64,000 bases of DNA from Vulcanimicrobiota bacterium (GTDB taxonomy: Bacteria; Vulcanimicrobiota; Xenobia; Xenobiales; JADMJV01): contig JAFKGI010000012.1 of assembly GCA_017307785.1 (NCBI GenBank), positions 1 through 64,000 on the forward strand. The letters run 5' to 3'. Below are positions 15,404 through 52,226 of the stretch, piece by piece. The stretch's first letter is position 1, and every line of letters begins with the position of its first letter. Under the pieces are notes generated by a model, which saw only the letters and a program-made list of their open reading frames with translations, ran no database searches and was not told where the DNA came from. The position numbers were made by a program, and so were the translations under genes.

Positions 15404-18097
15404 TTAGAGGCGGATGCCGACGGGGAGGGCTTCGCCGAGGAGGGCGGCGGCTTCTTGTTGGGCGCCGACCTGGCCGTCGAGGCTGGCCAGGTGGTTTTGG
15501 AGGCCTTCTTTTTCCAGGCGGTTGCGCACGCGCTCGACCTGATCCTCGGGGAAGTCCCGTTTGATGTCATCGGTTTTCCGCATCATGGCGGACAGGGCCC
15601 AGCCCACGGTTTCCTTCTCGCTCCACTTGGAGTCGAGGATCTTGCTGATCCAGGGCCAGACGGCGTCGGGGGGGACGACCCATTGAGGTCCGGCGCCGAG
15701 CAAATTGCGGGTGCCGATACGGGCGATGCGCCAGAGGTCGTCGCGAGTGCCCTGGAACTTCTTCATAATGATTTCTCCCAGCAGCACCTTGTCGGCCACC
15801 GGGATCTGCGAGAGGGACACGGCCAGACGCAGCAACTCGTTGTCCTCGGCGATGCTGCGCTGGTGCGGCACGCGGGTTTTCCAGTGCTTACGCCCCGGGA
15901 TCATCACGGCCGCCAGCTGGGTCCAAAGCTGCTCTTGACGAGCCACACTCATGCCGGCGGCCAGGCGGCGCAGCGTTACCCACAACTCCATGCGAACCGG
16001 CTCGAGCTTGGGGAACTGCAGCCAGGAATCGAGCAGAGCCGAGGTCTTCTCTACGCGCCAGGCGTCGAGCTTGGAGCCGGTGCCGGGACGCAGGCAGTAA
16101 CCGACGCCGTTGAGCCAGCTCTGCTCATACTCGGGCTCCACGCGACGGCGCTGATGCACGTCCACGAAGCCATCCCAGAGAGCGCGTAGCAGGGCCACCG
16201 ACCAGAGTTGGCGACCCAGCCCGAAGTGCTGCTCCAGATTGGCCAACAGGCTGCGCGGGCGCACGCCCGAGCCCAGTCCCTTGGGCTTGCGCAGAAAGGC
16301 CTCGGCAATGGTGTCCTTGGCCTGCTTGACGACTTCCGGAGGAAATTCCGGGCCGCCTTCCAGCACCACATCGCCGCGCAGCGGGAACTCAAGCTGAAAG
16401 CGGCGCTTGCCCTCGAGCATGCGGCAAGCGATCGAGAGCGTTCCGATCTCGGTGACCTCGCCGGAGAGCAACACCGGCACTTCGGTCACCTTCAGGTCGG
16501 GAGCGCGCACCACCGTTTCCATGGCCGGCAAAACTTGAAACTCGGACTCTTCGCTGCCCGCAGCCGCGATATCCACCAGCGCTCCGGGCTGGTCTTCGGG
16601 TCGGTTGGAGCTGCTGAAGATGGGAAAGCGCACCGGGCGCTCCAGGGTGAGCTGCAAGATGGGCTCGGGCAAGTCCACGCGCGAGCCGGCCTCGAGGTTA
16701 CGCGGAACCACGCACAGGGCCTGGGTCGACTCTCCGTCGCTGCTCAGCTGCAGATAGTAGCTGCGGGCGATACCGCCGCCGATGCGCTTGCCGCCGCTAC
16801 GCTTGAGGTGGCCGTAGTAGGCGGCTCCACGGGCCACCGAGAGGTCGGACTCGGGATTGATCAATTCCTCGACCGGACCACCACGCCAGGACTCCAGAAT
16901 CTGTAGCAGGCGCTGACGAATGGCCAGAGCTCGGCAGGCGCCACCATTGAAGAGAATTTTATTGGGGACATTGTCTTTGCGACCATGGCGGCGCAGGAAG
17001 CTGCTCAGATGGCGCGGCACGGCCGGATCACTGGCGTAGGGCAGTCCCCACTCTTTGAAGCCGAGCCGGCGTTCGGCCTGCAACGGCTCGTCGATAGGCA
17101 CGGCCGGGAAGAAGCCGTCCAGCACCAGCTTCTCCACTTCCTCGCGGGAAAGGTCGGCCTGCAGCGTGCCGGCCACCAGCTTGGAGCCGGAGCCGGGCAC
17201 GGTCACGGTCACCTTCTCGGGGGGCTCGTCGCCGAGCAGCAGTTCCTTGGCGCGGCGGCACTCGTTGCGTAACACCCCCCACTGCAGAATGTCCAATTTG
17301 GCGCCCAGACGCGGTTCCACCAGGTAGGCCAGGGCGATGTCCAGGTTATCGCCGCCCAGCATCAAGTGCTCGCCCACGGCTACGCGACGCAGGCCTTTGT
17401 CGGCATACTCAATCAAGGTAAAGTCGCTGGTGCCGCCGCCGATGTCGCAGACCAGAATCTGATCGCCCTGCTGAAGATTGACCGGGCTCTCCACGCTCAA
17501 GCCGTTGGCGTAGAGGTAATGATAGAAGGCCGCCTGCGGTTCTTCCAGCAGCGTGATCTTGTCGAGACCGGCCTGGCGCGCGGCCGACACGGTGAGCTCT
17601 CGAGCCAGCTCGTCAAACGAAGCCGGAACCGTCAACACGATTTCGCACTCATCCAACGGGTGGTCCGGGTACTGATGGCGGAAAGCCTCGCGCAAATGCT
17701 CGAGATAACGGCGCGAAGCCTCGACTGGAGAAACGCGGGGCGCGTCGGGCGCGCCGTCCCAGGGCAGCAACGGCTGACTGGGGTCGGCCTGACGATGGGC
17801 CAGCCAGGACTTGGCCGAAACGACCACGCGACCGGGCACGCGGGAGCCCTGCACGCGGGCGAACTCGCCCACCATAAAGTCGCGCTTTTCGTCCCAGGGC
17901 AGAGCCAGCGAACCTTCCGGCAGTTCGTGGGCGCCCGGCAGGTAGAGGAATGAAGGAAGCAGCGACTGTTCGCGGACTTCCGATTCCGAGACCCGCTGCG
18001 TCAGCTTGAGTGTCTCAATCTCACCACGATCTCCGATGATTCGCGCCAGGGCCGTGTTGGAGGTGCCCAGGTCGATGCCGACCAGCCAGTTGCTCAT
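15404..18097 (-). CDS. Hsp70-fold ATPase paralog (897 aa) with ~400-aa non-DnaK C-terminal extension
   Basis: N-terminal actin/Hsp70 NBD motifs GIDLGTSNTA (phosphate-1), CDIGGGTSDF (phosphate-2) and GGDNLD. No canonical DnaK substrate-binding domain or EEVD tail. The long C-terminal region is predicted helical. Its start overlaps the stop of the upstream paralog by 4 nt. Confidence 0.75.
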   Translation of the reverse strand: MSNWLVGIDLGTSNTALARIIGDRGEIETLKLTQRVSESEVREQSLLPSFLYLPGAHELPEGSLALPWDEKRDFMVGEFARVQGSRVPGRVVVSAKSWLAHRQADPSQPLLPWDGAPDAPRVSPVEASRRYLEHLREAFRHQYPDHPLDECEIVLTVPASFDELARELTVSAARQAGLDKITLLEEPQAAFYHYLYANGLSVESPVNLQQGDQILVCDIGGGTSDFTLIEYADKGLRRVAVGEHLMLGGDNLDIALAYLVEPRLGAKLDILQWGVLRNECRRAKELLLGDEPPEKVTVTVPGSGSKLVAGTLQADLSREEVEKLVLDGFFPAVPIDEPLQAERRLGFKEWGLPYASDPAVPRHLSSFLRRHGRKDNVPNKILFNGGACRALAIRQRLLQILESWRGGPVEELINPESDLSVARGAAYYGHLKRSGGKRIGGGIARSYYLQLSSDGESTQALCVVPRNLEAGSRVDLPEPILQLTLERPVRFPIFSSSNRPEDQPGALVDIAAAGSEESEFQVLPAMETVVRAPDLKVTEVPVLLSGEVTEIGTLSIACRMLEGKRRFQLEFPLRGDVVLEGGPEFPPEVVKQAKDTIAEAFLRKPKGLGSGVRPRSLLANLEQHFGLGRQLWSVALLRALWDGFVDVHQRRRVEPEYEQSWLNGVGYCLRPGTGSKLDAWRVEKTSALLDSWLQFPKLEPVRMELWVTLRRLAAGMSVARQEQLWTQLAAVMIPGRKHWKTRVPHQRSIAEDNELLRLAVSLSQIPVADKVLLGEIIMKKFQGTRDDLWRIARIGTRNLLGAGPQWVVPPDAVWPWISKILDSKWSEKETVGWALSAMMRKTDDIKRDFPEDQVERVRNRLEKEGLQNHLASLDGQVGAQQEAAALLGEALPVGIRL

Positions 18098-38445: not shown

Positions 38446-40068
38446 TTAGACTTTGTCGCGCAGACGGCCCTTCACGCGCCAGGCGGTGAAGGCCACGAAG
38501 AGAACTTCGGCGGCGCTGTAGACGGCCACATACTGGACGCCTCCGGTACCGAAGCCGTAGCTGTGCAGGCCCGCCCCGAGCACGAAGTTGACGCCGTACC
38601 AGGCCATCAGGACGCCCTGGAAAGCCAGCACCGACCAGGCGGCGATGCCGAAGGCACCGATCCAGTTGGTGAAGCGGGCGTGCAGGATGGCCAGATAACC
38701 CAGCAGTGCGATCAGAGCCCAGACTTCCTTGGGATCCCAGCCCCAGAAGCGGCCCCAGGAGTAGTTGGCCCAGACGCCACCGAGCAAAGTCCCGGCGGCC
38801 AGCAGAACCACGCCCACCTGGATGGCTTTGTAGAGAGCCGTGTGCAAGGCGGTCAGCTCTTCCTTTTGATCCGGGCCCTGCAGGTGCTTCCACAACACCA
38901 TGTGGCCCAGGCCCATCGAGAGCAGGAAGGCCGCATAGCCCAGGGTGATGGTCAGCACATGGATGGTCAACCAGAAGTTGCTGCGCAACACCGGCATCAG
39001 GGGACGGATGGAGGGGTCGAGAACGGCCGGCAGCTGGTCGGCCAGGGCCAAACAGATGACGGCGCCGCTGCAGGCGGCCATCAGGTAGCTGCGCTGCCGG
39101 TAGAGCAGTTCGAAAATCAAGGCGAAGGTGATGGCGCCAAAGGCAACCCAGATCACCGACTCATACATGTTGGTAACGGGCGGACGGCCGCCAATCGCGC
39201 AGCGCAGGTAGAATCCGTAGGCGTGAAGAGCCCAACCGCCGGCCGCGCCGGCAACACCCAGCCAGTAGAGCGAGGTTCCCCGGGTGGTCAGGAACAGGCA
39301 CACCAGGCTGAACAGATAGAGCATCCAGGCTTTGCGGAAGGGATGGAAGTGATTGTAGTGCACTTCGCGCGACAGCGCGGTGCCGTCCGGGTAGGGACCG
39401 ATGGCCTGAAGTGCGGCCGCCAACTCATTGACGGCCTTCTCTTCGCCGCTTTTGTTGACGACGGCGGTGTGGAAATTCTCGATAGCCTTTTTCAGCTCGG
39501 GCGGCGCGTTCTCAGCGTTCTGCACTTCGTAGAAGTTGGCCCAGGGCGAGGTCAGGGCGTCGGGCGAGGGAACCAGTGTCCAGGAAGCGCCCTTGGAGAT
39601 CATCTCCAGGTAGCCCATCTTGGAGAGCAGGTCGCTCATGGCCGAGAGCCGGTTGGGCACTTTGTCGCCCGGCTTCATCTTGTGCAGCTCTTCGCGGACC
39701 TTGACCACCTCGGGATTGGCGTTGAGTTCGTTCACCGTGAAGTAGCGCTGGTCGACCGGCAGCCCCAAGGTCTTGTGCCAGTCTTTGTTGCGGAACTCGA
39801 TGACGGGCAGTTCGGCCACTTTGGGGCCGGCGGCATACCACTGCAGCATGGTGACCACCGGATCGCGTTTCTCGAACTCGGCCTTGCCGGTGATGTAGCG
39901 CACCGTTTCCAGGGCAAACGTGTCGAAAGGCTTGAGACGTCCCCCCTGCTGCACGGCGAGATAGCGGAAACGGTCCGCCCAGTCCGGCACTTCTTCGGCC
40001 CAGGCCGCCAGCGGAGCCAACAGCAGGCAGAGCAACAAAATCCATCTAGACATCTTCAAAAACCTCAT
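38446..40068 (-). CDS. ccsA: Cytochrome c-type biogenesis protein CcsA/ResC (System II heme handling)
   Basis: WGRFWGWDPKEVWALIALLGYLAILHARF is the Trp-rich WWD heme-handling motif. Polytopic. The start overlaps the ccsB stop by 4 nt. Confidence 0.75.
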   Translation of the reverse strand: MRFLKMSRWILLLCLLLAPLAAWAEEVPDWADRFRYLAVQQGGRLKPFDTFALETVRYITGKAEFEKRDPVVTMLQWYAAGPKVAELPVIEFRNKDWHKTLGLPVDQRYFTVNELNANPEVVKVREELHKMKPGDKVPNRLSAMSDLLSKMGYLEMISKGASWTLVPSPDALTSPWANFYEVQNAENAPPELKKAIENFHTAVVNKSGEEKAVNELAAALQAIGPYPDGTALSREVHYNHFHPFRKAWMLYLFSLVCLFLTTRGTSLYWLGVAGAAGGWALHAYGFYLRCAIGGRPPVTNMYESVIWVAFGAITFALIFELLYRQRSYLMAACSGAVICLALADQLPAVLDPSIRPLMPVLRSNFWLTIHVLTITLGYAAFLLSMGLGHMVLWKHLQGPDQKEELTALHTALYKAIQVGVVLLAAGTLLGGVWANYSWGRFWGWDPKEVWALIALLGYLAILHARFTNWIGAFGIAAWSVLAFQGVLMAWYGVNFVLGAGLHSYGFGTGGVQYVAVYSAAEVLFVAFTAWRVKGRLRDKV

Positions 40069-41771
40069 TCGGAAACACCCCGCCGACCAACATTCACCTT
40101 GTAGGGGCGAGTGATGAACATAATGGCGATACCCATTACCACCATGATCGAACCCAAGTATTTGAGCGCGATTCCAGGGTCTTTGGCTACCGTGAAAATC
40201 GAGTAAGTCGGCTGGCCGGGAACTTCCGAGTAACTGCTCTGGAAGAACTTGTAGCCGCCTTTGACCAGCGGTTCATTCATTTGAATCAGATAGCTCTGGC
40301 CTTCCACTTCCACCTCGCTCTTGAAAGCGGCGGGGCTGTTGGTGCCGGGATCCATGTCCATCTGGAAGTCCTTGAGACGCAGGGGAAAGGCGAGCTCGAT
40401 GCTTTTGTAGGCGTAGCCGACGATCAGCTCTCCGCCTGAATCGGCGTGAATCTGAAGCACGTCGCCGCGCTCCATCCAACGCATTTCGTTCTCCTTGGCT
40501 CCCAGCAGGCGCAACCGAATGGCTGGCGGGGGGGCGGTCTGTTCCGCGCCCTTCTCGACTTCCACGGAAACGAATTCCCGGACTTCGACCGCCTTGGGCA
40601 GAAGTTTGCTGACTTCGAACTGCAGGTTCATCCAGCCGGTCGCCTGCGGCTTGTTGAGGTCGACCGGGTGGGCCGCTTTGTCGTCCACTTTGCCCCAGAG
40701 TTTGCCGTTGGGATCGACGATGAAGCTGAGAACGTGACCTTCGCCGGCCGTATCCCAGGCGTAGAGCAGCTTGGCCGGAATGGCCTCGCCTTTGGAAGCG
40801 GTGCGGGTATTCAGGTCGGGCAGACGCGCGAACAGCAGCCAATCCTGGTAATTGCCCTTGCTGTCGGCGAGGCGAACGTCGAGGCAGGGGTTGACGGGAT
40901 TGTCGCTCTGCGAAACCAACTCGTCTTTCTCGATGACGGCGTGCGGCAGATAGCGCCTCAGGGTGACGGTGAATTCGCCGACCTGGAAGGGCTTGTTGGC
41001 AGAGAGTTCAGAAACGTTGATCTGCAGGGGCTCCCCCGCCACCAGCAACTGGAGTTCGCCGCGCTCGCTGGAGCCGGCCTGGATCAGGCTCTTGAGGTGC
41101 TCCTGGTTGTTGGCGCGCAGCAGGCGGATGCGGGCCGGTCCCAACTGCACGTCGCCCTTACCCGCGGTCAGCCATTCGTGCTGGTCCACGCGCTCGTTGA
41201 AGATGCGCATTTCCAGAGCGGGCACTCCCTGGGGAGCTTCTTTATAGTAGGTGTTGCGCCGGGCGTGGTGGAGATACTCCACCACCTCGGCGGTCACACC
41301 CTCGCCCAGGTTGACCTTCTGGGGTCGACTTTCGCTGGGCGGAGTCCAGCGAAATTCAGCCGGCACTTCCTTGAGTTGAGCGCTCGGGCGCCCCACGAAG
41401 AAAACCGGGTCGTTGAGCATGATCCGCTTGGAGGTCTGCCCTTCCTGGATGATCATCGAGCCGTCCACGCCGGCCACCATCGTAAAGGCGGCGGCTGCGA
41501 GCAGAATCAAGATTCCCAGATGGGTGATGACGAAGCCGGTCTGCTTCTTGCTCCAGGGGTAGCGGATGGCCGTCGAGGTAAAGATGTTGACGAAGAAGAT
41601 GACCAGAAAGACGGCGAATAGAGGGCTTTTGTAGACGAGATGCTGGGCCGTCGCGGTATCGTAGGCGGATTCATAGTAGGTGGCCGAGGCCAGAATCACC
41701 ACAAAAAAAACGAAGAGAATGACGGCCAGCTTGATGGAGGCCAGGAACTTAAATACTTTGTTGCGCTTCAC
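40065..41771 (-). CDS. ccsB: Cytochrome c biogenesis protein CcsB/ResB (Ccs1)
   Basis: ResB-like N-terminal TM segments, large periplasmic domain and C-terminal TM. Paired with ccsA. Confidence 0.7.
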   Translation of the reverse strand: MKRNKVFKFLASIKLAVILFVFFVVILASATYYESAYDTATAQHLVYKSPLFAVFLVIFFVNIFTSTAIRYPWSKKQTGFVITHLGILILLAAAAFTMVAGVDGSMIIQEGQTSKRIMLNDPVFFVGRPSAQLKEVPAEFRWTPPSESRPQKVNLGEGVTAEVVEYLHHARRNTYYKEAPQGVPALEMRIFNERVDQHEWLTAGKGDVQLGPARIRLLRANNQEHLKSLIQAGSSERGELQLLVAGEPLQINVSELSANKPFQVGEFTVTLRRYLPHAVIEKDELVSQSDNPVNPCLDVRLADSKGNYQDWLLFARLPDLNTRTASKGEAIPAKLLYAWDTAGEGHVLSFIVDPNGKLWGKVDDKAAHPVDLNKPQATGWMNLQFEVSKLLPKAVEVREFVSVEVEKGAEQTAPPPAIRLRLLGAKENEMRWMERGDVLQIHADSGGELIVGYAYKSIELAFPLRLKDFQMDMDPGTNSPAAFKSEVEVEGQSYLIQMNEPLVKGGYKFFQSSYSEVPGQPTYSIFTVAKDPGIALKYLGSIMVVMGIAIMFITRPYKVNVGRRGVSE

Positions 41772-41807: not shown

Positions 41808-43781
41808 TTATTTCTTTTTGGGCTTCTTCCCGGTTTTCTTGGGAGCTATACTTGCCGGAGCAGATTTTTTCCCAATCGGTACAGCCAGGATTCCGTCCAC
41901 CTCTTTGGTCAGATCATCGGCATAGGCCGGTTGACCTTGAGCCTGGGCCAGGCGTCGGACTTCCTCCAACTGGTTCTTACTGCCCTCGACATCGCCCAAC
42001 TGGGCCAGGGTCAGGGCCAGATTGCCACGCGCCGCCAGCAGTTCGGGCTCCAGGCTGAGCGCCCGGTTGAAGTGGTGCATGGCGGTATCAAATTGACGAA
42101 GTTCGTAATGCGCCAGAGCCAGATTGAAATGGCCTTCGGCGTAGTCCGGCATTTGCTCCAGGGCCTGCTGCAACTGGGCGACCGCGTCCTCGAAGCGGCG
42201 CAGGCGAGCCAGCACGATGCCCAGGTTGTTCCGCGAGTAGACGTCGCGCGGGTCCGAGGCCAGGGCGGCATGGAACCGGTCGGCTGCCTCCTCGAAACGC
42301 TCTAGAGCGGTCAAGACCAGGCCTAGATTGCTCAGCGTGTAGCCGTCGCTGGGCTCGCTGGCCAGAGCCTGCTCAAAAGCCTGAAGGGCCTTGTCGACTT
42401 CACCCAGTTGGTAGCGAGTCAAGGCCAGATGGTTGAGGGCATAGACATCCTGCGGGTCGGCCTGGACGGCCTGCTCAAAACGCTGTCCGGCTTCCGCCAG
42501 ACGACCCAACTGAGACAGAGCCAGGCCCCAGTGGGTGAGCGCGTAGGCGTCGCGATCATCTTGGGCCACGGCAAACGAGAAGTGTTCAATGGCCTCATCG
42601 TACCTGCCCAGCGAGGACAGCGAAAAGCCCAGATTGTTGCGGGCCAGCACGTCACCGGGGTCCACTTCCACGGCCCGCACCAGCACGTCGACGGCTTCCT
42701 GCATGTGACTGGAGCGAATCAGGCAAAGGCCCAGATTGTTGAGGGCGTAGCTGTCGCGGTCGTCGGCGATCAAACTGCGACGGAATTCTTGCTCGGCCTC
42801 GCTGACGCGACCGAGGCTGAGCAGGGCTCGTCCCAGGTTGTTGCGAGCGTAAGAGTCGTGGGGGGAAAGCTCCAAAGCACGACTGTAGTAGCTGACGGCT
42901 TCCTGCCACATCCCCTGCTGGGCGTGGACGCGTCCCAAATTATGGTAAGCAACCGCATCGTCCGGATGCTCTTCGAGGACGGCCCGGAACTGCGCGACGG
43001 CAGCGCTCTGGTCCCCTTGCTTGGCCAGGATACGCCCCAGATTGTTGCGCGCGTAGGCGTCTCCCGAGTCGATCTGCAGGGCCAGCTCAAACTCGCGACG
43101 GGCTTCGTCGATGCGGTCGGTGCGCTCCATCAGCTTGCCCAGGTTATTATGAGCGTAAAGGTCGGTTCGGTCCAACTCGAGTGCGCGACGGAAGCAGCCC
43201 TCGGCGTCCTCCAGTCGATTCTGGCGAGCGTAGACCTGACCCAAATTGTTGTGCGCGTAGACGTCGTCGGCGTTCAACTGGAGAGCCTGCAGATAGTAGG
43301 ACTCCGCCTGATCCAGCTGACCCAGACGCGAATACATCAGCCCCAGGTTGTAGTAGGCCTGAGAGTAGTCGGGAGAGAGTTCGAGGGCCTTCTCCCAGCA
43401 CTCGATCGCCTTGGCGTACTGCGTCTGACGCGCGTAGACCAGGCCGAGATTGTTGTGGGCGTAGGGGTCTCCGGGACGATGCTCAAGCGCCTGGCGATAT
43501 TGATCGGCTGCCTGGCGGAACTTGCCCTGCCCCAGGTAGTACATCCCCAGGAAATACCGCGCTGCCGAGTGAGCGGGGTCCAACTCGACGACCTTGCGCC
43601 AGTGCTTGGCCGCTTTTCCCTGCTCTCCCTGGCGAGCCAGGGCCACGCCCAGATCGAACTGAATGTCGGCCCGGTCGGGGTGCTCTTTCTCCAGATTCCG
43701 TAGCTCTTCTACCGAGGCCACAGACTGGTTTTCGGCGCTGGGCGGGTCTGCTTTGAGGGAACGGGTACGGCGCTTGGTCAT
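41808..43781 (-). CDS. Tetratricopeptide-repeat protein (~17 TPRs)
   Basis: Repeating W-LG-Y....G-Y..A...F..AL...P 34-mers throughout. Start set to the ATG at 43781, because the upstream part of the track ORF is Cys-rich junk. Confidence 0.8.
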   Translation of the reverse strand: MTKRRTRSLKADPPSAENQSVASVEELRNLEKEHPDRADIQFDLGVALARQGEQGKAAKHWRKVVELDPAHSAARYFLGMYYLGQGKFRQAADQYRQALEHRPGDPYAHNNLGLVYARQTQYAKAIECWEKALELSPDYSQAYYNLGLMYSRLGQLDQAESYYLQALQLNADDVYAHNNLGQVYARQNRLEDAEGCFRRALELDRTDLYAHNNLGKLMERTDRIDEARREFELALQIDSGDAYARNNLGRILAKQGDQSAAVAQFRAVLEEHPDDAVAYHNLGRVHAQQGMWQEAVSYYSRALELSPHDSYARNNLGRALLSLGRVSEAEQEFRRSLIADDRDSYALNNLGLCLIRSSHMQEAVDVLVRAVEVDPGDVLARNNLGFSLSSLGRYDEAIEHFSFAVAQDDRDAYALTHWGLALSQLGRLAEAGQRFEQAVQADPQDVYALNHLALTRYQLGEVDKALQAFEQALASEPSDGYTLSNLGLVLTALERFEEAADRFHAALASDPRDVYSRNNLGIVLARLRRFEDAVAQLQQALEQMPDYAEGHFNLALAHYELRQFDTAMHHFNRALSLEPELLAARGNLALTLAQLGDVEGSKNQLEEVRRLAQAQGQPAYADDLTKEVDGILAVPIGKKSAPASIAPKKTGKKPKKK

Positions 43782-43812
43782 TTGCCGCCTTTCGCCTAAA
43801 AAGTTGGCTGTC

Positions 43813-44889
43813 CTACTTAGCCAAAACGTTTTGCAGCAGGTTGCGCACCTTTTCCAGGTCGCCCGCCTCACCGCGCACAAAGAGCACGTTGAGACGATCA
43901 TCCTGGATGACTTCGACATCCGCGACCGCTCGGCGAATTGCCGCCACCAGGTCCTTGGCCGACTTGTCCGGCATCAAAGGAAAATAGTCGCTGACCAGCT
44001 TCAAAGTGCGCGTGCCGGTGTTGTCGGTGGAAACCGGCGGAGGCACGGGCACGGTCGGAACCAGGGTGGCGCCCGCACCGCTGTTATCGCCGAAAACTCG
44101 CAGACGATTGCCCTCAATCTTCATCTCGTAGAGGTCCTGCTGCTTCCCGAGAACCCGGGTAATGGCTTGCGAGAGTGGTACGTCCGTGAACGTATCCGTT
44201 ACTTTACCCTTGACTTCGGGACCCACCTCGGCCTCCAGGCCGGCGGCGCGAGCCATCTCGCGGATGGCCACAGGCAGGTCCTTGTTGACAAAGCTGATGG
44301 TAATGATGCGCTGGTCCACGTTGTTCCGTGCCGGAGCGGGTGTGGGCGGAGTGGGCTGGGCCGGTCGGGCCGGGACATCGTTGTGAGCCACCGGCGGCGG
44401 GGTGGGACGAGGGGCCGGGCGACTGGGAGTGGCGACCGGCTTGACCGGAGGCAAACTGGCAAAACCCTGGACGGCTCCACCTGCGGGCAACTTGGGAGGT
44501 TCGTTGCCCGCGGCCATCTCGCCGGCGGAAATCCGCAGGGTCCAGTTTTTCTTGTCCGCACTGCTGACCCAACTCATCTTCGGACTCTGCAAAGCATAAA
44601 CCGTGACGACCACAACGCCGCTGCCGGGCTTGACCTCGATCTTTTGCAGCACGCCCTTGTCGATGTTCGAGACGGCCTTGCCCTGCCATTCGACCTTGGG
44701 CACGGTGATCTCGAGCCGATGGGGATTCTCCCGCCATTTTTGAGTCACATTCTCGAAGGGCTTATCCTGGGAGAGTTTGACTTCCACTCGGTCACTGGTC
44801 TTGTGAACGTCGACCCCCAGTTTCGGGTCGGCCCAGGCCAGGCCGTTCAAGGCAATAGCAAAAAGAAATCCGGCATGATTACGAGACAA
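43813..44889 (-). CDS. Secreted protein with AMIN-like domain, Pro-rich linker, STN and secretin-N domains but no secretin pore domain
   Basis: Signal peptide. STN-like block ITISFVNKDLPVAIREMARAAGLEAEVGPEVKGKVTDTFTDVPLSQAITRVLG...YEMKIEGNRLRVFG. Secretin_N-like block TLKLVSDYFPLMPDKSAKDLVAAIRR...RLNVLFVRGEAGDLEKVRNLL. The protein ends there at 358 aa. Confidence 0.5.
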   Translation of the reverse strand: MSRNHAGFLFAIALNGLAWADPKLGVDVHKTSDRVEVKLSQDKPFENVTQKWRENPHRLEITVPKVEWQGKAVSNIDKGVLQKIEVKPGSGVVVVTVYALQSPKMSWVSSADKKNWTLRISAGEMAAGNEPPKLPAGGAVQGFASLPPVKPVATPSRPAPRPTPPPVAHNDVPARPAQPTPPTPAPARNNVDQRIITISFVNKDLPVAIREMARAAGLEAEVGPEVKGKVTDTFTDVPLSQAITRVLGKQQDLYEMKIEGNRLRVFGDNSGAGATLVPTVPVPPPVSTDNTGTRTLKLVSDYFPLMPDKSAKDLVAAIRRAVADVEVIQDDRLNVLFVRGEAGDLEKVRNLLQNVLAK

Positions 44890-44930
44890 AGCGGTTAACC
44901 TCCGCGAGTAGATTCGGTGGGCAGGGCCGA

Positions 44931-45254
44931 CTAGGGAGAGGTGACGGGCACCATCTGTCCATTGGGAGTCTGCACGCCGTCAATGGTCTCCAAGCGGAGA
45001 AAATTATTCTGGTCCAGGCGAGCCGAGCAATCGATAATCATCCCGGGCACCAGGGTGGAGGGAATCAGGGCGCCCTCCTTGACGAACACTCGGAGGTACT
45101 GAGCGTCGGGGGAAACCAGCACGAAGTGGTTTGCCTGAACGTAGCCGACGGTGCCGTGTAAGCGCGCGGGCGGATCGAAGATATCCCTGAGAACATCGGC
45201 GTTAGCCGTTCCCATCAGAGTTACCAGCATCAAAAGGCGAACGAACATTTTCAT
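44931..45254 (-). CDS. Small secreted hypothetical protein
   Basis: Start set to MKMFVRLLMLVTLMGTANA (signal peptide). The upstream part of the track ORF is Gly/Arg-rich junk. Confidence 0.4.
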   Translation of the reverse strand: MKMFVRLLMLVTLMGTANADVLRDIFDPPARLHGTVGYVQANHFVLVSPDAQYLRVFVKEGALIPSTLVPGMIIDCSARLDQNNFLRLETIDGVQTPNGQMVPVTSP

Positions 45255-45295
45255 AGCCGCCCTGGTTTCCCCCAGGGAACTGGAATCCCTTTTCT

Positions 45296-46243
45296 TTACC
45301 GATAAGGTGTGACGCGGCTGGGTGCGACCCATTCGTCCGGGTAATCTTGGGCCAGGCCCATCCAGTGGACGAGTACGCCGCGATGGCCCTGTTCCACCAC
45401 CCGCGCCTTCCAATTCGACCCGTCGGCAAAGACGCTCACATAAGCCCCCTCCCCCGCCCGCAGCGGTCGGGCCGTGCGAATCCAGGGAGTGGTATCCGGG
45501 AAGAGCGGAGAGCCGGAGCCGCCTGCCTTCTGGTTCTCGGCGAACTGCATATCCTTTTCCACTTGCTGGGACATCTCGGCCAGGCTGATGACACCATCGC
45601 CGTTGGTATCACAGCGCGGGTCGCCGCCCAGAGCATCGAGCAGACAGTCGGTGAAAGTCCAATTGCCGGTGCTGCTCAGACGAGCGGTCGAGGAGGAGAG
45701 AGCGAAGAAGCCGATGTTGCTGACGTTGCGCCTGGCGGCCAGGCGCATCGCGCCGGAGTGGCAACAGTCCGCCGATAGGAAGACCCGGCTTCCCTTGAAC
45801 AACCGGTTGACGTCGCGTTCGATACCGCGCAGGCCCCACAGCGTGTCTACGTCATAGCCGTCGTAGGGCACCATCCAAAAAGTCCGGTCCGCCTCGTCGC
45901 GATAGCCGTGGCCGGCATAGTAAAGAATCAAGGTGTCGCCGGGACGGCATTTTCCTAGAATCTTCATAAAGGCGTCGTGAATGCCCTGACGGGTTGCATC
46001 CCGGTCCAGCAGCAGAGTCACCTGATCGGGAGGAACGCCCAGCCGCTGATAGGCCAGAGCCAGGCGAACGTCCCGCCGATTGGTTTTGGGAAAGCTTGGA
46101 TAGACGTCGGAACGAGCCCACTCCAGACATCCGACCGCGAACACCCAGGTGCGCTTCGGGTCCAGTCCGTCGGCCGCGGTCGGCCCCTGAGCCCAGGCCC
46201 AGACGGTCAACGCCAGCCAGCAGGCCAACAACCGTCTAATCAC
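45296..46243 (-). CDS. Secreted orthocaspase (peptidase C14, metacaspase-like) with EF-hand-like Ca-binding loop
   Basis: Signal peptide; catalytic His in YYAGHGY and catalytic Cys in DCCHSG, matching the metacaspase dyad context. C-terminal DTNGDGVISLAEM is an EF-hand/dockerin-type loop, followed by a small beta-rich module. Confidence 0.7.
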   Translation of the reverse strand: MIRRLLACWLALTVWAWAQGPTAADGLDPKRTWVFAVGCLEWARSDVYPSFPKTNRRDVRLALAYQRLGVPPDQVTLLLDRDATRQGIHDAFMKILGKCRPGDTLILYYAGHGYRDEADRTFWMVPYDGYDVDTLWGLRGIERDVNRLFKGSRVFLSADCCHSGAMRLAARRNVSNIGFFALSSSTARLSSTGNWTFTDCLLDALGGDPRCDTNGDGVISLAEMSQQVEKDMQFAENQKAGGSGSPLFPDTTPWIRTARPLRAGEGAYVSVFADGSNWKARVVEQGHRGVLVHWMGLAQDYPDEWVAPSRVTPYR

Positions 46244-47573
46244 TCATCACCCAGGTTGCGGCGATTTGAGCTCCCGCCTTGACATTGGTGACATCGCTAT
46301 CGGAGACACGAACCAGCGGATCGGCAACCGCCGCTCCAAACATGTAGGGATCGAAGTCGAAGCGAAAATCCTCGAACTTCCAGCCGTCTTCCAAGGGCAC
46401 CGGAAACTCGGCGTGGGGGATGTGCACGCGGCGCTGCGCCACGTAGCGGTCTTTCACGGCCTCTTCGATGGCCCGCTCCCATGCCAGATCGTCCATTTCC
46501 CAGCCCAGGTAGAGACCCTGACCACCGTAGCCATCGGCCGGCTTCAGAATGGTCTGCTCGCGCTCCTGACGCAGTTTGTCCAGCAGCGGCCCATCCTCGA
46601 CGATGGTGGTCCACGGCACCAGCGAGCGCAAGAAAGTCAGGTCGGATTTGTTCAGCAAAGTCTCAAACTCGGGGCGGTGCACCCAGGAGAGCAGAGACTT
46701 GACGGTCAGCGGCTTGCAGGCAAAGGAGTTGACCACGCACACGGCCTCTTCGCGGTAGGCGTTCAAGAAAGGCCGAGCCGCCTCGGCGTGAGCCAGCAAA
46801 TCTTCCACCAGGACGCGACGATAGACGAGATCGATAACTTTTCCATCGTAGTCGAGCAACTTTCCGTCCCGGTATTCTAGTTCCCGGGGATCGCAAATCA
46901 CCGTTTCGTAGCCGAGACGATTGTAACGCAACTTCAGCAGTTCGAACTCGCTGGCGGTGTTGACCGTGATCCAGTCGACCACGGCAATGCGCGGCTTGCC
47001 CTTGCCGCCCCACTGTTCCCAGGACTTCAAAAGCAAGGGCAGGTCACGGCTATCGGTGGCCAGATAGCGACCGGGGAATTCTTTGGCCAATCGCTTCCAC
47101 AAGGACGTTTTTTTCAGGAGCCGCACGCATTCGTCCATAAAGGCCGCGCCGCCCGGGCTATCCACGTTGAGCTCCACAATCTGATAGCCGATCTCTCCGT
47201 TGGAAAAATCCAGGAAGCCATCCACTCGGGAGATATACTCACCGGCTTTGAGACGGCTGGGCCACTGAATCAGTTGCTGCTCGGTCCGGGAAATTCCCAG
47301 GCGGTCCAGCCATTGAGTGGTGCGCAGAGGCTCTTCGAGCTTGGCCAGCACGCGCACCAGTCGGCGCATCTGATCCTGCAACGGCTTGAGGTGAGCCTGA
47401 CGCATCAAAGCGGGCGCGATGCAGATCGGCAAAGGCTTTCCTTGAAAGAGGATGCCTCGCTTGGTCAGACCCTTTTCAATTTCCGCGTATTCCTGACGGG
47501 TGCCGGCAGGGTCCGCTTCCAGATGCTGCCGAATAAAATCGAATGCTGCTCTACAATAGGGGTCTGGAATCAT
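46236..47573 (-). CDS. Circularly permuted ATP-grasp family enzyme (GSP-synthetase / CP_ATPgrasp-like)
   Basis: The Mg/ATP 'ELN' block (IVELNVDSPGG, ~res 135) lies before the Gly-rich B-loop (TILKPADGYGGQGLYLGW, ~res 340). That is the circularly permuted order. Overlaps the orthocaspase start by 8 nt. Confidence 0.55.
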   Translation of the reverse strand: MIPDPYCRAAFDFIRQHLEADPAGTRQEYAEIEKGLTKRGILFQGKPLPICIAPALMRQAHLKPLQDQMRRLVRVLAKLEEPLRTTQWLDRLGISRTEQQLIQWPSRLKAGEYISRVDGFLDFSNGEIGYQIVELNVDSPGGAAFMDECVRLLKKTSLWKRLAKEFPGRYLATDSRDLPLLLKSWEQWGGKGKPRIAVVDWITVNTASEFELLKLRYNRLGYETVICDPRELEYRDGKLLDYDGKVIDLVYRRVLVEDLLAHAEAARPFLNAYREEAVCVVNSFACKPLTVKSLLSWVHRPEFETLLNKSDLTFLRSLVPWTTIVEDGPLLDKLRQEREQTILKPADGYGGQGLYLGWEMDDLAWERAIEEAVKDRYVAQRRVHIPHAEFPVPLEDGWKFEDFRFDFDPYMFGAAVADPLVRVSDSDVTNVKAGAQIAATWVMSD

Positions 47574-48076
47574 ACTCCGTCGCGTTCCGCGCGGGCTGGC
47601 GTTTTGCCTGCAGTCTGGCTCTTCTTCTCGTGCTTTCGGGCACAGCTCGGGCCCAGATGCCGCCGCCTGACTGGCGGACTCTAAACCCGGAACAAAGAGC
47701 CTTTCTCATGGACGCCTTCCAAATGGCGCCCGAGGTGCGCCAATCCTTCTCCGATGGCGTCCCCGACGAGATCAAACAGAACCTTCTCAACTCTCTCTGG
47801 AGCGTGCTCACTCCCGAAAAACGGGTTCAAGTCGCCCTCTACGCCCACATCGAGAAACCCTGGAGCACCCAGTCGGAGTCGACCTCCAAGGTGCTGGCCC
47901 CGCAATTTGCCAAACTGTCCAAACTGCAGAAATTCCGCGTCTACGAAGCCGCACATTGGGACGCCACCCAGCGGGGTATTTTCGAAGCCCTTCCGAACGA
48001 GCTTCGCCAAGGAGCCTTTGAGGCGCTCTGGTCCTACCTGGACCCCAAGGCACGCAAGGCAATCCTGGCTCCCTAG
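47543..48076 (+). CDS. Secreted hypothetical protein
   Basis: Signal-peptide-like FACSLALLLVLSGTARAQ. The start is uncertain: the ATG at 47543 overlaps the divergent ATP-grasp start by 31 nt. Confidence 0.4.
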   Translation: MLLYNRGLESYSVAFRAGWRFACSLALLLVLSGTARAQMPPPDWRTLNPEQRAFLMDAFQMAPEVRQSFSDGVPDEIKQNLLNSLWSVLTPEKRVQVALYAHIEKPWSTQSESTSKVLAPQFAKLSKLQKFRVYEAAHWDATQRGIFEALPNELRQGAFEALWSYLDPKARKAILAP

Positions 48077-48100: not shown

Positions 48101-48814
48101 TTGAAAAAGCTACTCGTCTCTTGCTTGCTCCTGGCTTCGGCTTCGGCCGCCTGGGCGGACAGACTCTATGTGCGCAATCGGCCCTTTGAGGGCTATGTCA
48201 TCGGGACTCTGGACAACCTGTCAGCCCTGGAAGTGGACGCCCGCGACTTTGCCAGAGCTCTCGGCTACAACCTGGACGAGGTGGACGGCAACTGGGTGCT
48301 GCGCTCCCCGAACGACAAGAGCGCCCCCGCGTTGACTGCCGGAGCCCACAAGCTCTATGCCGGTGGCCACGAACTCGCCTACCGCGCCGACGTGGACCGG
48401 AAACTGGTGAAACTGGCCGATCTGGCGCAAGCCCTGGGCGGTCGAGTGGTGCGCCACTCAGAGCTGGGCACCGTCGACTTCGACTTGATCAACGGCTACA
48501 AAGAAGAGATTGGCTTCGACCCCAAGCAATTCCACCTGATCTACTACGGAGCCGATTGGGCGCCGGCCGCCAAATTGTTCAAGCCGGTGGTGGTGGAGTT
48601 CGATCTCAAAAAACTGGTGCCGGTCATCTACGTGGACTGTATGCAGCCCCGCTCCCCCGTCTATAAGAACTTCATCCGCTACTTCAACGGCGACAAAATC
48701 CCCTATGTCGTCCTGCTCGGTCCCAACGGCAAAGTGGCCAAAACCTGGACCGGCTACCAGGACATCGGGCCCTGGACGACCGAGATTCAAAAACTCACCG
48801 GTCAGCGCTTCTAA
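48101..48814 (+). CDS. Secreted hypothetical protein with thioredoxin-like C-terminal region lacking CxxC
   Basis: Signal peptide MKKLLVSCLLLASASAAWA. The C-terminal HLIYYGADWAPAAKLF...VVLLGPNG is Trx-like in pattern but has no cysteines at the CxxC position. Confidence 0.35.
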   Translation: MKKLLVSCLLLASASAAWADRLYVRNRPFEGYVIGTLDNLSALEVDARDFARALGYNLDEVDGNWVLRSPNDKSAPALTAGAHKLYAGGHELAYRADVDRKLVKLADLAQALGGRVVRHSELGTVDFDLINGYKEEIGFDPKQFHLIYYGADWAPAAKLFKPVVVEFDLKKLVPVIYVDCMQPRSPVYKNFIRYFNGDKIPYVVLLGPNGKVAKTWTGYQDIGPWTTEIQKLTGQRF

Positions 48815-51500: not shown

Positions 51501-52226
51501 ATGCACAAAGTCAAAGTCGCAATTTTAGTTCGCAGCAATTATTGGCACTTCCCCGCCGGCCCCGTCAACGGAGCCACCCACCGCAGCGTCCCGGACATTA
51601 TGCGCGCCATCCGCCGAGCGGGCGGAGAGCCGGTTCTGGTCTATCAAGACGGTAGTGCGCAACCCGACCAGTGGGACGCGGTGGTGATCCCCGGCGGCAA
51701 CGATCTACACCCCGGCTGGTACAACCAGGAAGCCCACAGCAGCGTCGACCTGGCTACCGTGGACGCCGATTTTGACCATTTCCAACTGCGCTGGACCCGC
51801 TGGGCTCTGGAAAACGACAAGCCACTGCTCGGCATCTGCCGTGGAATGCAGGTCTTGAACGTGGCCGCCGGCGGCAACTTGATCCAGGACGTGGCCCACC
51901 ACACCTCCCCCGAGCTCCAAAATGACCCCAGTCGCCGGCGCGAGCCTGCTCACGGCATTCACATCGTGCCCGGCTCGCGCCTACACCAGATCCTCGGCGA
52001 CGATTACGTGCGGGTCAACTCGATCCACCACCAGGCGGTGGACCGCGTCGGCGAACGCTTCCAACCGGTGGCCTGGGCGCCGGACGGAGTGGTGGAAGCC
52101 ATCGAAGGACGCAACAGCCCCTGGCAACGTGGCGTCCAGTTTCACCCCGAAGATATGCAGGAAAGTGCTCCCTTTCAAGCCCTCTTTCAATCTCTCGTCG
52201 AGGACGCCCGCAGCCACGAGGACTAA
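51501..52226 (+). CDS. Class I glutamine amidotransferase, gamma-glutamyl-GABA hydrolase (PuuD/peptidase C26)-like
   Basis: GICRGMQVLN (Cys nucleophile) and NSIHHQAV (His). GAGGA RBS. Confidence 0.75.
   Translation: MHKVKVAILVRSNYWHFPAGPVNGATHRSVPDIMRAIRRAGGEPVLVYQDGSAQPDQWDAVVIPGGNDLHPGWYNQEAHSSVDLATVDADFDHFQLRWTRWALENDKPLLGICRGMQVLNVAAGGNLIQDVAHHTSPELQNDPSRRREPAHGIHIVPGSRLHQILGDDYVRVNSIHHQAVDRVGERFQPVAWAPDGVVEAIEGRNSPWQRGVQFHPEDMQESAPFQALFQSLVEDARSHED

Follow-up and report, generated by a model that had tools for sequence, protein, structure and literature searches.

A probably composite ATP-grasp, secretin-N-like, TPR and cytochrome c biogenesis gene cluster in Vulcanimicrobiota, joined by an orthocaspase gene in one shallow lineage

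The window analyzed here, i.e., the whole stretch of 64,000 nucleotides (nt) at positions 1 to 64,000 of contig JAFKGI010000012.1 (Vulcanimicrobiota bacterium, assembly GCA_017307785.1), carries eight tightly spaced minus-strand genes between 37690 and 47573, as defined by an open reading frame (ORF) listing and hidden Markov model (HMM) searches. In reading order, these encode a circularly permuted ATP-grasp ligase, a C14 orthocaspase, a small secreted protein, a protein built of secretin N-terminal domains (AMIN-N0-N1), a tetratricopeptide repeat (TPR) protein, CcsB/ResB, CcsA/ResC and a Suc_Fer-like protein. With a probability of about 0.6, we consider the locus to be a composite operon-like cluster made up of three layers of differing age. 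The oldest would be a four-gene module (ATP-grasp, small protein, AMIN-N0-N1 protein and TPR protein) conserved across Eremiobacterota, the second the ccsB, ccsA and Suc_Fer-like genes directly downstream, devoted to cytochrome c maturation, and the third the secreted orthocaspase gene, inserted between the ATP-grasp and small-protein genes in one shallow lineage only. Within the module, the ATP-grasp would be cytosolic and, because its catalytic motifs are intact, would most likely join a carboxylate to an amine through one amide bond in an ATP-driven reaction. The small protein would be secreted and beta-rich, the AMIN-N0-N1 protein periplasmic, probably tethered to peptidoglycan by analogy with the AMIN domains of PilQ and, given that it has no pore domain, probably a scaffold or ring element, and the TPR protein a large cytosolic scaffold. 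The caspase most likely arose by duplication of a solitary paralogue, of a kind common in the phylum; it now appears to be translationally coupled to the ATP-grasp and would therefore be co-expressed with the envelope module. Its partnership with the ligase would be positional and not that of an old two-enzyme system, and it most likely works alone, cleaving proteins in the periplasm or outside the cell, where an EF-hand-like loop may limit its activity to the Ca-rich extracytoplasmic space.

Distribution of the ATP-grasp/caspase pair

An initial annotation of the window, made from the sequence alone, had described the first five genes as a co-directional periplasmic cluster and proposed that the ATP-grasp and the caspase form a ligase/peptidase pair with a swapped protease. 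All five genes are present on the minus strand, and the 8-nt overlap of the first two was recovered: an in-frame TGA leaves the GTG at 46243 as the earliest possible start of the caspase, and 46236 is the last position of the ATP-grasp stop codon TAG. The conservation of the pair was borne out for the close relatives only. Lack of conservation in other genomes had been named in the initial annotation as grounds for rejecting its proposal, and past one shallow clade the pair is indeed not kept. Among the traced loci (numbered with L below), the caspase occurs in the window and in L004, L005 and L091, where the ATP-grasps are 73-90% identical to that of the window and each of these close relatives retains the overlap, at 4 or 8 nt. 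More ATP-grasp homologues, with identities as low as 71%, could be tied to caspase homologues by contigs of equal length (90% clusters), and adjacency was seen only at an ATP-grasp identity of at least 71%. At 64% identity and below it is gone, with no caspase in the module loci L090 (64%), L014 (59%) and L003, L011, L012, L017, L094 and L095 (42-44%), nor any such adjacency in 69 outgroup loci.

The caspase itself points the same way. All three relatives traced outside the clade, namely L086 and L087 (Vulcanimicrobiota, 46-47% identity) and L088 (Planctomycetales, 40%), are solitary, with no ATP-grasp nearby, and in the tree the in-cluster caspases group together in one clade, whose sister group is made up of the solitary Vulcanimicrobiota caspases. 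A solitary caspase (MFN8608015) and an in-cluster pair (caspase MFN8608263 and ATP-grasp MFN8608264) probably share one metagenome-assembled genome (MAG), since their accession numbers lie ~250 apart. In its catalytic and conserved residues, the ATP-grasp does not differ from that of the caspase-less relatives. The simplest reading of these data would be one duplication of a solitary caspase gene and its insertion between the ATP-grasp and the small gene in a shallow lineage; the ATP-grasp/caspase adjacency is a lineage-specific variant.

A true ligase/peptidase system, in which the ATP-grasp attaches a group by an amide link to some peptide or protein and the caspase cleaves that group off or processes it, would parallel RimK/RimB, RloC/RloA and the circularly permuted (CP) ATP-grasps with transglutaminase/Anbu partners, a caspase-fold peptidase having been recruited in this lineage. 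The conserved overlap in all four loci and the co-occurrence of both genes across the 90% clusters would fit such a system, as do precedents for ATP-grasp and peptidase operons, one of them with a secreted peptidase (PMC11957051; PMC5666114). Nevertheless, the pair does not reach the deeper orthologues, the nearest traced caspase relatives are solitary, the ligase residues do not differ from those of caspase-less relatives, and the two proteins appear to belong to different compartments. The ATP-grasp N-terminus, read from the sequence, has no signal peptide and, considering also its need for ATP, the enzyme should be cytosolic, whereas the caspase N-terminus (MIRRLLACWLALTVWAWA-QG) is signal-peptide-like. 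A nearby gene for a small peptide substrate, for which the initial annotation had advised looking, was not found between the cluster genes: the remaining intergenic gaps, from the caspase onward, are 41, 41, 31, 36, -4 and 0 nt and therefore leave no space for one. Because of the different compartments and the young pairing, we consider a dedicated system of this kind unlikely. A functional coupling would extend the ATP-grasp amidoligase-peptidase partnerships to a caspase-fold enzyme and provide a defined biochemical context for a bacterial orthocaspase, which, to our knowledge, almost none has; this prospect is weak because the evidence points to a recent insertion.

The swapped-protease proposal also had as its premise that CP-ATP-grasps pair with alpha-E and transglutaminase-like proteins, which is not what the neighbors of this subfamily look like. 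Outside the phylum, the outgroup ATP-grasps (30-36% identity; 69 loci, L016-L085, from Chloroflexota, Dormibacterota, Acidobacteriota and others) have as same-strand neighbors GCS2 downstream (28 of 54) and, upstream, a conserved second ATP-grasp-like protein of ~325 aa with no Pfam match, giving the order ATP-grasp-like protein, CP-ATP-grasp, GCS2 (e.g., L020 8949-12336). No match to alpha-E or transglutaminase was obtained among the immediate same-strand neighbors of the outgroup ATP-grasps, in the cluster genes searched or, for the traced Eremiobacterota loci, among the called genes with Pfam annotation. Neither GCS2 nor the second ATP-grasp is present in the window or in the Eremiobacterota loci. 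A Peptidase_M29 gene is sometimes also found in the outgroup amidoligase cluster.

The four-gene module and the cytochrome c biogenesis genes

The survey of the module included a ResB-anchored metagenome scan. In every locus having a TPR gene and enough upstream sequence (12/12), the genes for the ATP-grasp, the small protein and the AMIN/N1 protein lie ahead of the TPR gene, and ccsB comes next after it in 10 of the 11 module loci reaching past the TPR gene. The exception is L011 (44%), where the module stands alone and tblastn gave no ResB downstream of the TPR gene. The contig of L090 stops inside ResB; in the six caspase-less loci that extend far enough (L014, L003, L012, L017, L094 and L095), ResB, CcsA and Suc_Fer follow. 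The Suc_Fer-like gene follows CcsA in every module locus reaching past CcsA and also in L096 and L097, which have ccsBA and Suc_Fer with neither the TPR nor the ATP-grasp gene; in L099/L100, too, ccsBA is found without the module. Both flanks of the block change beyond the close relatives, and ccs-linked ATP-grasps occur in both deep Eremiobacterota ATP-grasp subclades of the tree. To the extent that could be found, a four-gene module with a pore-less secretin N-region is undescribed, and it is synteny that marks it as a unit.

Some loci depart from this layout. In L012, the ATP-grasp and the small gene are separated by two small ORFs (11430-12003), which by eye only resemble a toxin-antitoxin pair, and TPR and ResB by a gene of the metallo-beta-lactamase (MBL) fold (15855-16694); this MBL gene also stands ahead of ResB in the module-less L096. 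Other Eremiobacterota ATP-grasp paralogues (L001, L002, L006-L010 and L015) sit elsewhere, without ccs genes. Two genomes carry an unlinked ATP-grasp together with a copy from clade B, which is otherwise ccs-linked; this copy is ccs-linked in L012, and in L013 the contig ends just past the gene. An MsbA-like ABC exporter of ~595 aa (L007 6354-8138, L008 8144-9931, L015 5244-7055) is adjacent to or near the unlinked paralogues of these three loci, being divergent and directly adjoining the ATP-grasp in the latter two. Thiol export by this exporter was considered and set aside, as the protein resembles MsbA only generically and stays under every curated NCBIfam cutoff, including those of CydC/CydD. 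A glutathione S-transferase and an esterase flanking the L002 paralogue were also dropped as a lead, given that they are not repeated in L007-L010 or L015.

A second alternative is that the ATP-grasp module serves cytochrome c maturation, with the ligase making a small amide (e.g., a thiol-bearing or polyamine conjugate) or else modifying a factor that CcsBA requires to handle haem or apocytochrome, with chaperone or scaffold roles for the TPR and AMIN-N0-N1 proteins and with the caspase as a passenger. Such a link is suggested by position and by the thiol/polyamine-ligase fold class: the module lies directly upstream of ccsB in 10/11 loci, down to 42% ATP-grasp identity and with changing flanks, the structural neighbors of the ligase are GspS, trypanothione synthetase and glutathione synthetases, and the outgroup ATP-grasps adjoin GCS2, of the gamma-glutamylcysteine-ligase family. 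On the other hand, ccsBA occurs without the module in L096/L097 (with Suc_Fer) and L099/L100, the L012 block is interrupted by the toxin-antitoxin-like pair and the MBL-fold gene, the paralogous ATP-grasps elsewhere have no ccs genes, and neither a thiol-specific residue nor transporter evidence was found, the exporter beside the paralogues being generic. We therefore regard this role as improbable.

More speculatively, the module could be an envelope-spanning system whose ligase product or modified protein is required alongside System II cytochrome c maturation in the periplasm, with the caspase recruited in one lineage as its processing protease. We give this somewhat less credence than either of the alternatives above, although, if true, it would represent the first ATP-grasp/caspase-fold ligase-peptidase system. 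That there is no functional unit at all, the genes being independent and kept together by inherited gene order where the chromosome is little rearranged, is the least probable, for although the evidence is all positional, with no gene fusions and no common known pathway, and although the 75-118 nt spacer between the ATP-grasp and the small gene in the caspase-less loci could house a separate promoter, the block outlasts the replacement of both flanks, its four module genes occur together in every case (12/12 loci) and the gaps in the window are short or overlapping.

Several points weigh against the layered cluster with a recently inserted caspase. The 4-8 nt overlap found in all clade members may reflect selection for co-translation of partners, and an operon pairing a cytosolic ATP-grasp with a secreted peptidase does exist, namely RloABC of P. 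aeruginosa (PMC11957051). The trees were built by neighbor joining and carry no support values, and signal peptides were read by eye from the N-termini and not with a predictor. Many of the loci come from related MAGs, the 12 loci amounting to perhaps 7 independent lineages, and gene order conserved within one phylum may partly reflect inheritance instead of selection. The layered reading nevertheless exposes a conserved, unannotated module in a barely cultured phylum, which we find more interesting than the caspase pair. It offers a concrete lead for envelope biology or cytochrome maturation in Eremiobacterota and is, at present, a synteny observation only.

Proteins of the cluster and surrounding genes

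Positions of the genes, domains and motifs are collected in Table 1. Exact look-up gave the accessions MBN9416233 for the ATP-grasp, MBN9416232 for the caspase and MBN9416230 for the AMIN-N0-N1 protein, and the only NCBI names returned for cluster proteins were "hypothetical protein" and "caspase family protein".

TABLE 1 Genes, domains and motifs of the cluster, in window positions
Feature	Positions	Strand	Remarks
ATP-grasp	46236..47573	-	445 aa; circularly permuted carboxylate-amine ligase; first gene of conserved block
E134-L-N136, putative Mg-binding E-x-N motif of ATP-grasp	47166..47174	-	N-terminal to phosphate-binding loop
K344-P-A-D-G-Y-G-G-Q-G, glycine-rich ATP-binding loop	46515..46544	-	C-terminal to E-x-N, i.e., permuted order
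C14 orthocaspase	45296..46243	-	315 aa; GTG start; one C-terminal Tudor/Agenet-like domain
Catalytic His112 of caspase, in YYAGHGY	45908..45910	-	invariant column
Cys160-Cys161 of caspase, in ADCCHSG	45761..45766	-	C161 is the invariant catalytic Cys
EF-hand-like loop D212-TNGDGVISLA-E223 of caspase	45575..45610	-	fits DxNxDGxIxxxE
C-terminal Tudor/Agenet-like domain of caspase	45299..45460	-	aligns with first Agenet/Tudor-knot domain of homologues
Small secreted protein	44931..45254	-	107 aa
AMIN-N0-N1 (secretin-N-like) protein	43813..44889	-	358 aa
AMIN domain of 358-aa protein (modelled)	44515-44826	-	
N0 domain of 358-aa protein (modelled)	44089-44316	-	
N1 domain of 358-aa protein (modelled)	43834-43995	-	
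TPR protein	41808..43781	-	658 aa; TPR along whole length, ~17 repeats
CcsB/ResB, System II cytochrome c biogenesis	40065..41771	-	PF05140, 70 bits
CcsA/ResC haem-handling protein	38446..40068	-	PF01578 (Cytochrom_C_asm), 105 bits
Suc_Fer-like, thioredoxin-like ferredoxin family	37690..38445	-	PF06999, 69 bits; last gene of conserved block

The circular permutation of the ATP-grasp, put forward in the initial annotation, holds by motif order and by fold. The E-x-N motif (134-136) precedes the K-P-x-D-G-x-G-G loop (344-353) by ~200 residues. The reverse order is found in classical ATP-grasps such as GshB, as is familiar from GshB and human glutathione synthetase. The AlphaFold model (mean predicted local distance difference test score, pLDDT, 91.7) is matched far better by permuted-class structures than by classical ones in the fold search, with GspS, trypanothione synthetase and glutathione synthetases as structural neighbors; comparison of the sequence with the PDB gave only chance-level matches. 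In the HMM assignment that had been advised as a check, CP_ATPgrasp_2 (PF14403) reached 29.6 bits, slightly below its gathering score of 32; most of the listed homologues, some of them 90-93% identical, bear a precomputed PF14403 match. The ATP-binding part of GSH-S_ATP scored 24.7 bits, its profile positions 8-49 corresponding to ATP-grasp residues 315-356. Over 35 homologues, down to 30% identity, 40 columns are invariant, among them E134, N136, K344, P345, D347, G350 and G353, and because these catalytic and conserved residues are invariant the window enzyme looks active. The permuted class includes Cp1B (PMC12568646), and all of its characterized members join a carboxylate to an amine in small molecules.

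For the caspase, Peptidase_C14 (PF00656) scored 27.6 bits, above its cutoff of 21.4, and a Caspase_w_EACC1-type domain 50.7 bits, below its own cutoff. The claim of a signal-peptide-bearing protein with an intact His/Cys dyad was upheld: H112 and C161 are invariant across 13 family members and also align with the motifs of metacaspase-4 and GSU0716. A lipoprotein reading of the N-terminus (LLAC) was ruled out, given that the aligned orthologues have no Cys there. As to the EF-hand, the loop does fit the consensus, with D212 and E223 invariant and D216 at least 90% conserved in the family alignment, and may bind Ca; it is, however, a single loop within the C14-matched region and not a separate EF-hand domain. 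The C-terminal 55 residues make up the Tudor-like part. A profile search returned 463 representative clusters at E<=1e-30, with named relatives in Planctomycetales, Pirellulales, Pyrinomonadaceae, Blastocatellia and other groups, which places the caspase, as judged by sequence, in a widespread family of secreted caspase-Tudor proteins.

The 358-aa protein had been described as an AMIN, STN and Secretin_N protein that stops before any pore domain, and orthologue HMMs and fold matches agree with this. Taken by itself, the window copy gives a weak Secretin_N match (23.9 bits, below 28.2) and a weak N0 match; across the orthologues, Secretin_N is matched in 8/8, STN in 4/8 and AMIN in 3/8. The AlphaFold model has three confident domains (residues 22-125, 192-267 and 299-352), with a Pro-rich linker between AMIN and N0, and Foldseek pairs it with PilQ B2/N0/N1 and with the N0-N1 domains of GspD, XcpQ and InvG (E 2.6e-11 to 1e-3). 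The pore domain (PF00263) has no match in this protein, the chain stopping 6 residues past N1. The N0 domain is absent from the orthologues in L003 and L017. The family numbers 40 matches, only in Eremiobacterota-like contigs, and the next relative beyond it is a full-length PilQ-type secretin (P0279).

Both the 107-aa and the ~17-repeat proteins noted in the initial annotation lie on the same strand, and the block does continue into ccsBA. Orthologues of the small protein were found in L003, L004, L005, L011, L014, L017, L090, L094 and L095, with a weak DUF5666-like match in 2 of 7. The TPR protein was matched by TPR_2 (342 bits over 13 stretches) and TPR_16 (over 15 stretches), and has orthologues of 42-92% identity in all module loci. 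Its assignment to MamA or PilW was discarded, as the high NCBIfam scores are a sum over many TPR repeats. CcsA carries the W-rich motif WGRFWGWDP at residue 442, and no CcdA/ResA-type thiol-redox gene was found among the cluster genes searched.

The description of the cluster as periplasmic applies to three of its five proteins. Besides the caspase, signal-peptide-like N-termini are borne by the small protein (…GTANA) and the 358-aa protein (…GLAWA). None is seen on the ATP-grasp or on the TPR protein, and the latter (N-terminus MTKRRTRSLKADPP) has no transmembrane segment either. The only Eremiobacterota strain in culture is Gram-negative and has an outer membrane (PMC9758169), and a periplasm is therefore expected.

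A promoter and terminator scan gave counts at or below the shuffle expectation and was uninformative, and an Rfam scan of the window found a single tRNA at 511-583, with no RNA element inside the cluster. Divergently from the ATP-grasp, two plus-strand genes encode secreted proteins of 177 aa (47543-48076) and 237 aa (48101-48814), whose family is unassigned (no Pfam or NCBIfam match). The sole plausible ATG of the former (47543) overlaps the ATP-grasp start region (47573) head to head by 31 nt. This arrangement also occurs in L004 and L091, and both genes remain in L090. A Peptidase_C26/class-I glutamine amidotransferase-like gene of the gamma-glutamyl hydrolase type (51501-52226, +) lies 4 kb upstream of the ATP-grasp on the opposite strand and is absent beside the ATP-grasp in the related cluster loci. 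Two genes behind the Suc_Fer-like gene and co-directional with it (37279-37677 and 36924-37274, -) encode small, acidic, cytosolic proteins. The former protein, of 132 aa, is conserved in L004, beside a gene call with a faint TerB match, and neither is kept in more distant loci. Further away, an 810-aa ORF (28352-30784, -) matches Pfam MVP_shoulder (90 bits, cutoff 25) and Vault_3 domains, which gives this Eremiobacterota MAG a homologue of the major vault protein of eukaryotes.

Comparison with known systems

The ATP-grasp is closest in organization to the class of GspS, YgiC, YjfC and eukaryotic glutathione synthetase (PF14403; 3n6x), in which the E-x-N motif likewise precedes the glycine-rich loop and whose catalytic residues are conserved in the window protein too. 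It differs from the solved permuted members by having only 11-16% identity to them and, unlike GspS, it has no amidase domain. Its gene partners are also different, both from those of the outgroup (GCS2 and the second ATP-grasp) and from the alpha-E and transglutaminase (Anbu) partners attributed to CP-ATP-grasps in work cited by PMC5666114.

As in RimK/RimB and RloABC, an ATP-grasp gene adjoins a peptidase gene, and in RloABC the RloA peptidase is secreted and the RloC ATP-grasp cytosolic (PMC11957051). However, the peptidase is caspase-fold in the window and retropepsin-like aspartic in both of those systems, and the ligase is permuted and GspS-like as opposed to RimK-like. A pseudo-transglutaminase membrane protein is missing from the window cluster, and the adjacency is recent and restricted to a single clade, without the broad phylogenetic spread that would be expected of a conserved ligase-peptidase operon of the RimK-RimB or RloABC type. 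In the literature searched, we found no paper joining an ATP-grasp with a caspase, metacaspase or orthocaspase, and nothing relevant for Tudor. With the C14 orthocaspase-Tudor family, the window caspase shares the signal peptide, the His/Cys dyad, the STGNWTF motif, the EF-hand-like loop and the Tudor-like C-terminus; it is unlike these relatives in lying inside an operon, overlapping the ATP-grasp and having one Tudor-like domain instead of two.

A resemblance to CHAT (Caspase HetF Associated with TPRs) had also been raised. In CHAT, caspase and TPR typically form one polypeptide, whereas the window caspase matched only Peptidase_C14 (Pfam, E<=0.01) and the TPR protein is encoded by a separate gene three genes off, lacks a signal peptide and is conserved with or without the caspase. 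Since the TPR gene is part of the old module, the analogy does not hold.

The 358-aa protein has the same domains in the same order as the secretin N-terminal region (AMIN/B2, N0 and N1 of PilQ; N0-N1 of GspD, XcpQ and InvG), and it differs from secretins in that the chain ends after N1, with no pore, and that no pilus or secretion genes are adjacent. Finally, the ccs genes correspond to System II (CcsB/ResB and CcsA/ResC), with both Pfam families above threshold and the W-rich motif present; what sets them apart from the usual System II is the unusual four-gene module ahead of them and the Suc_Fer-like gene behind.

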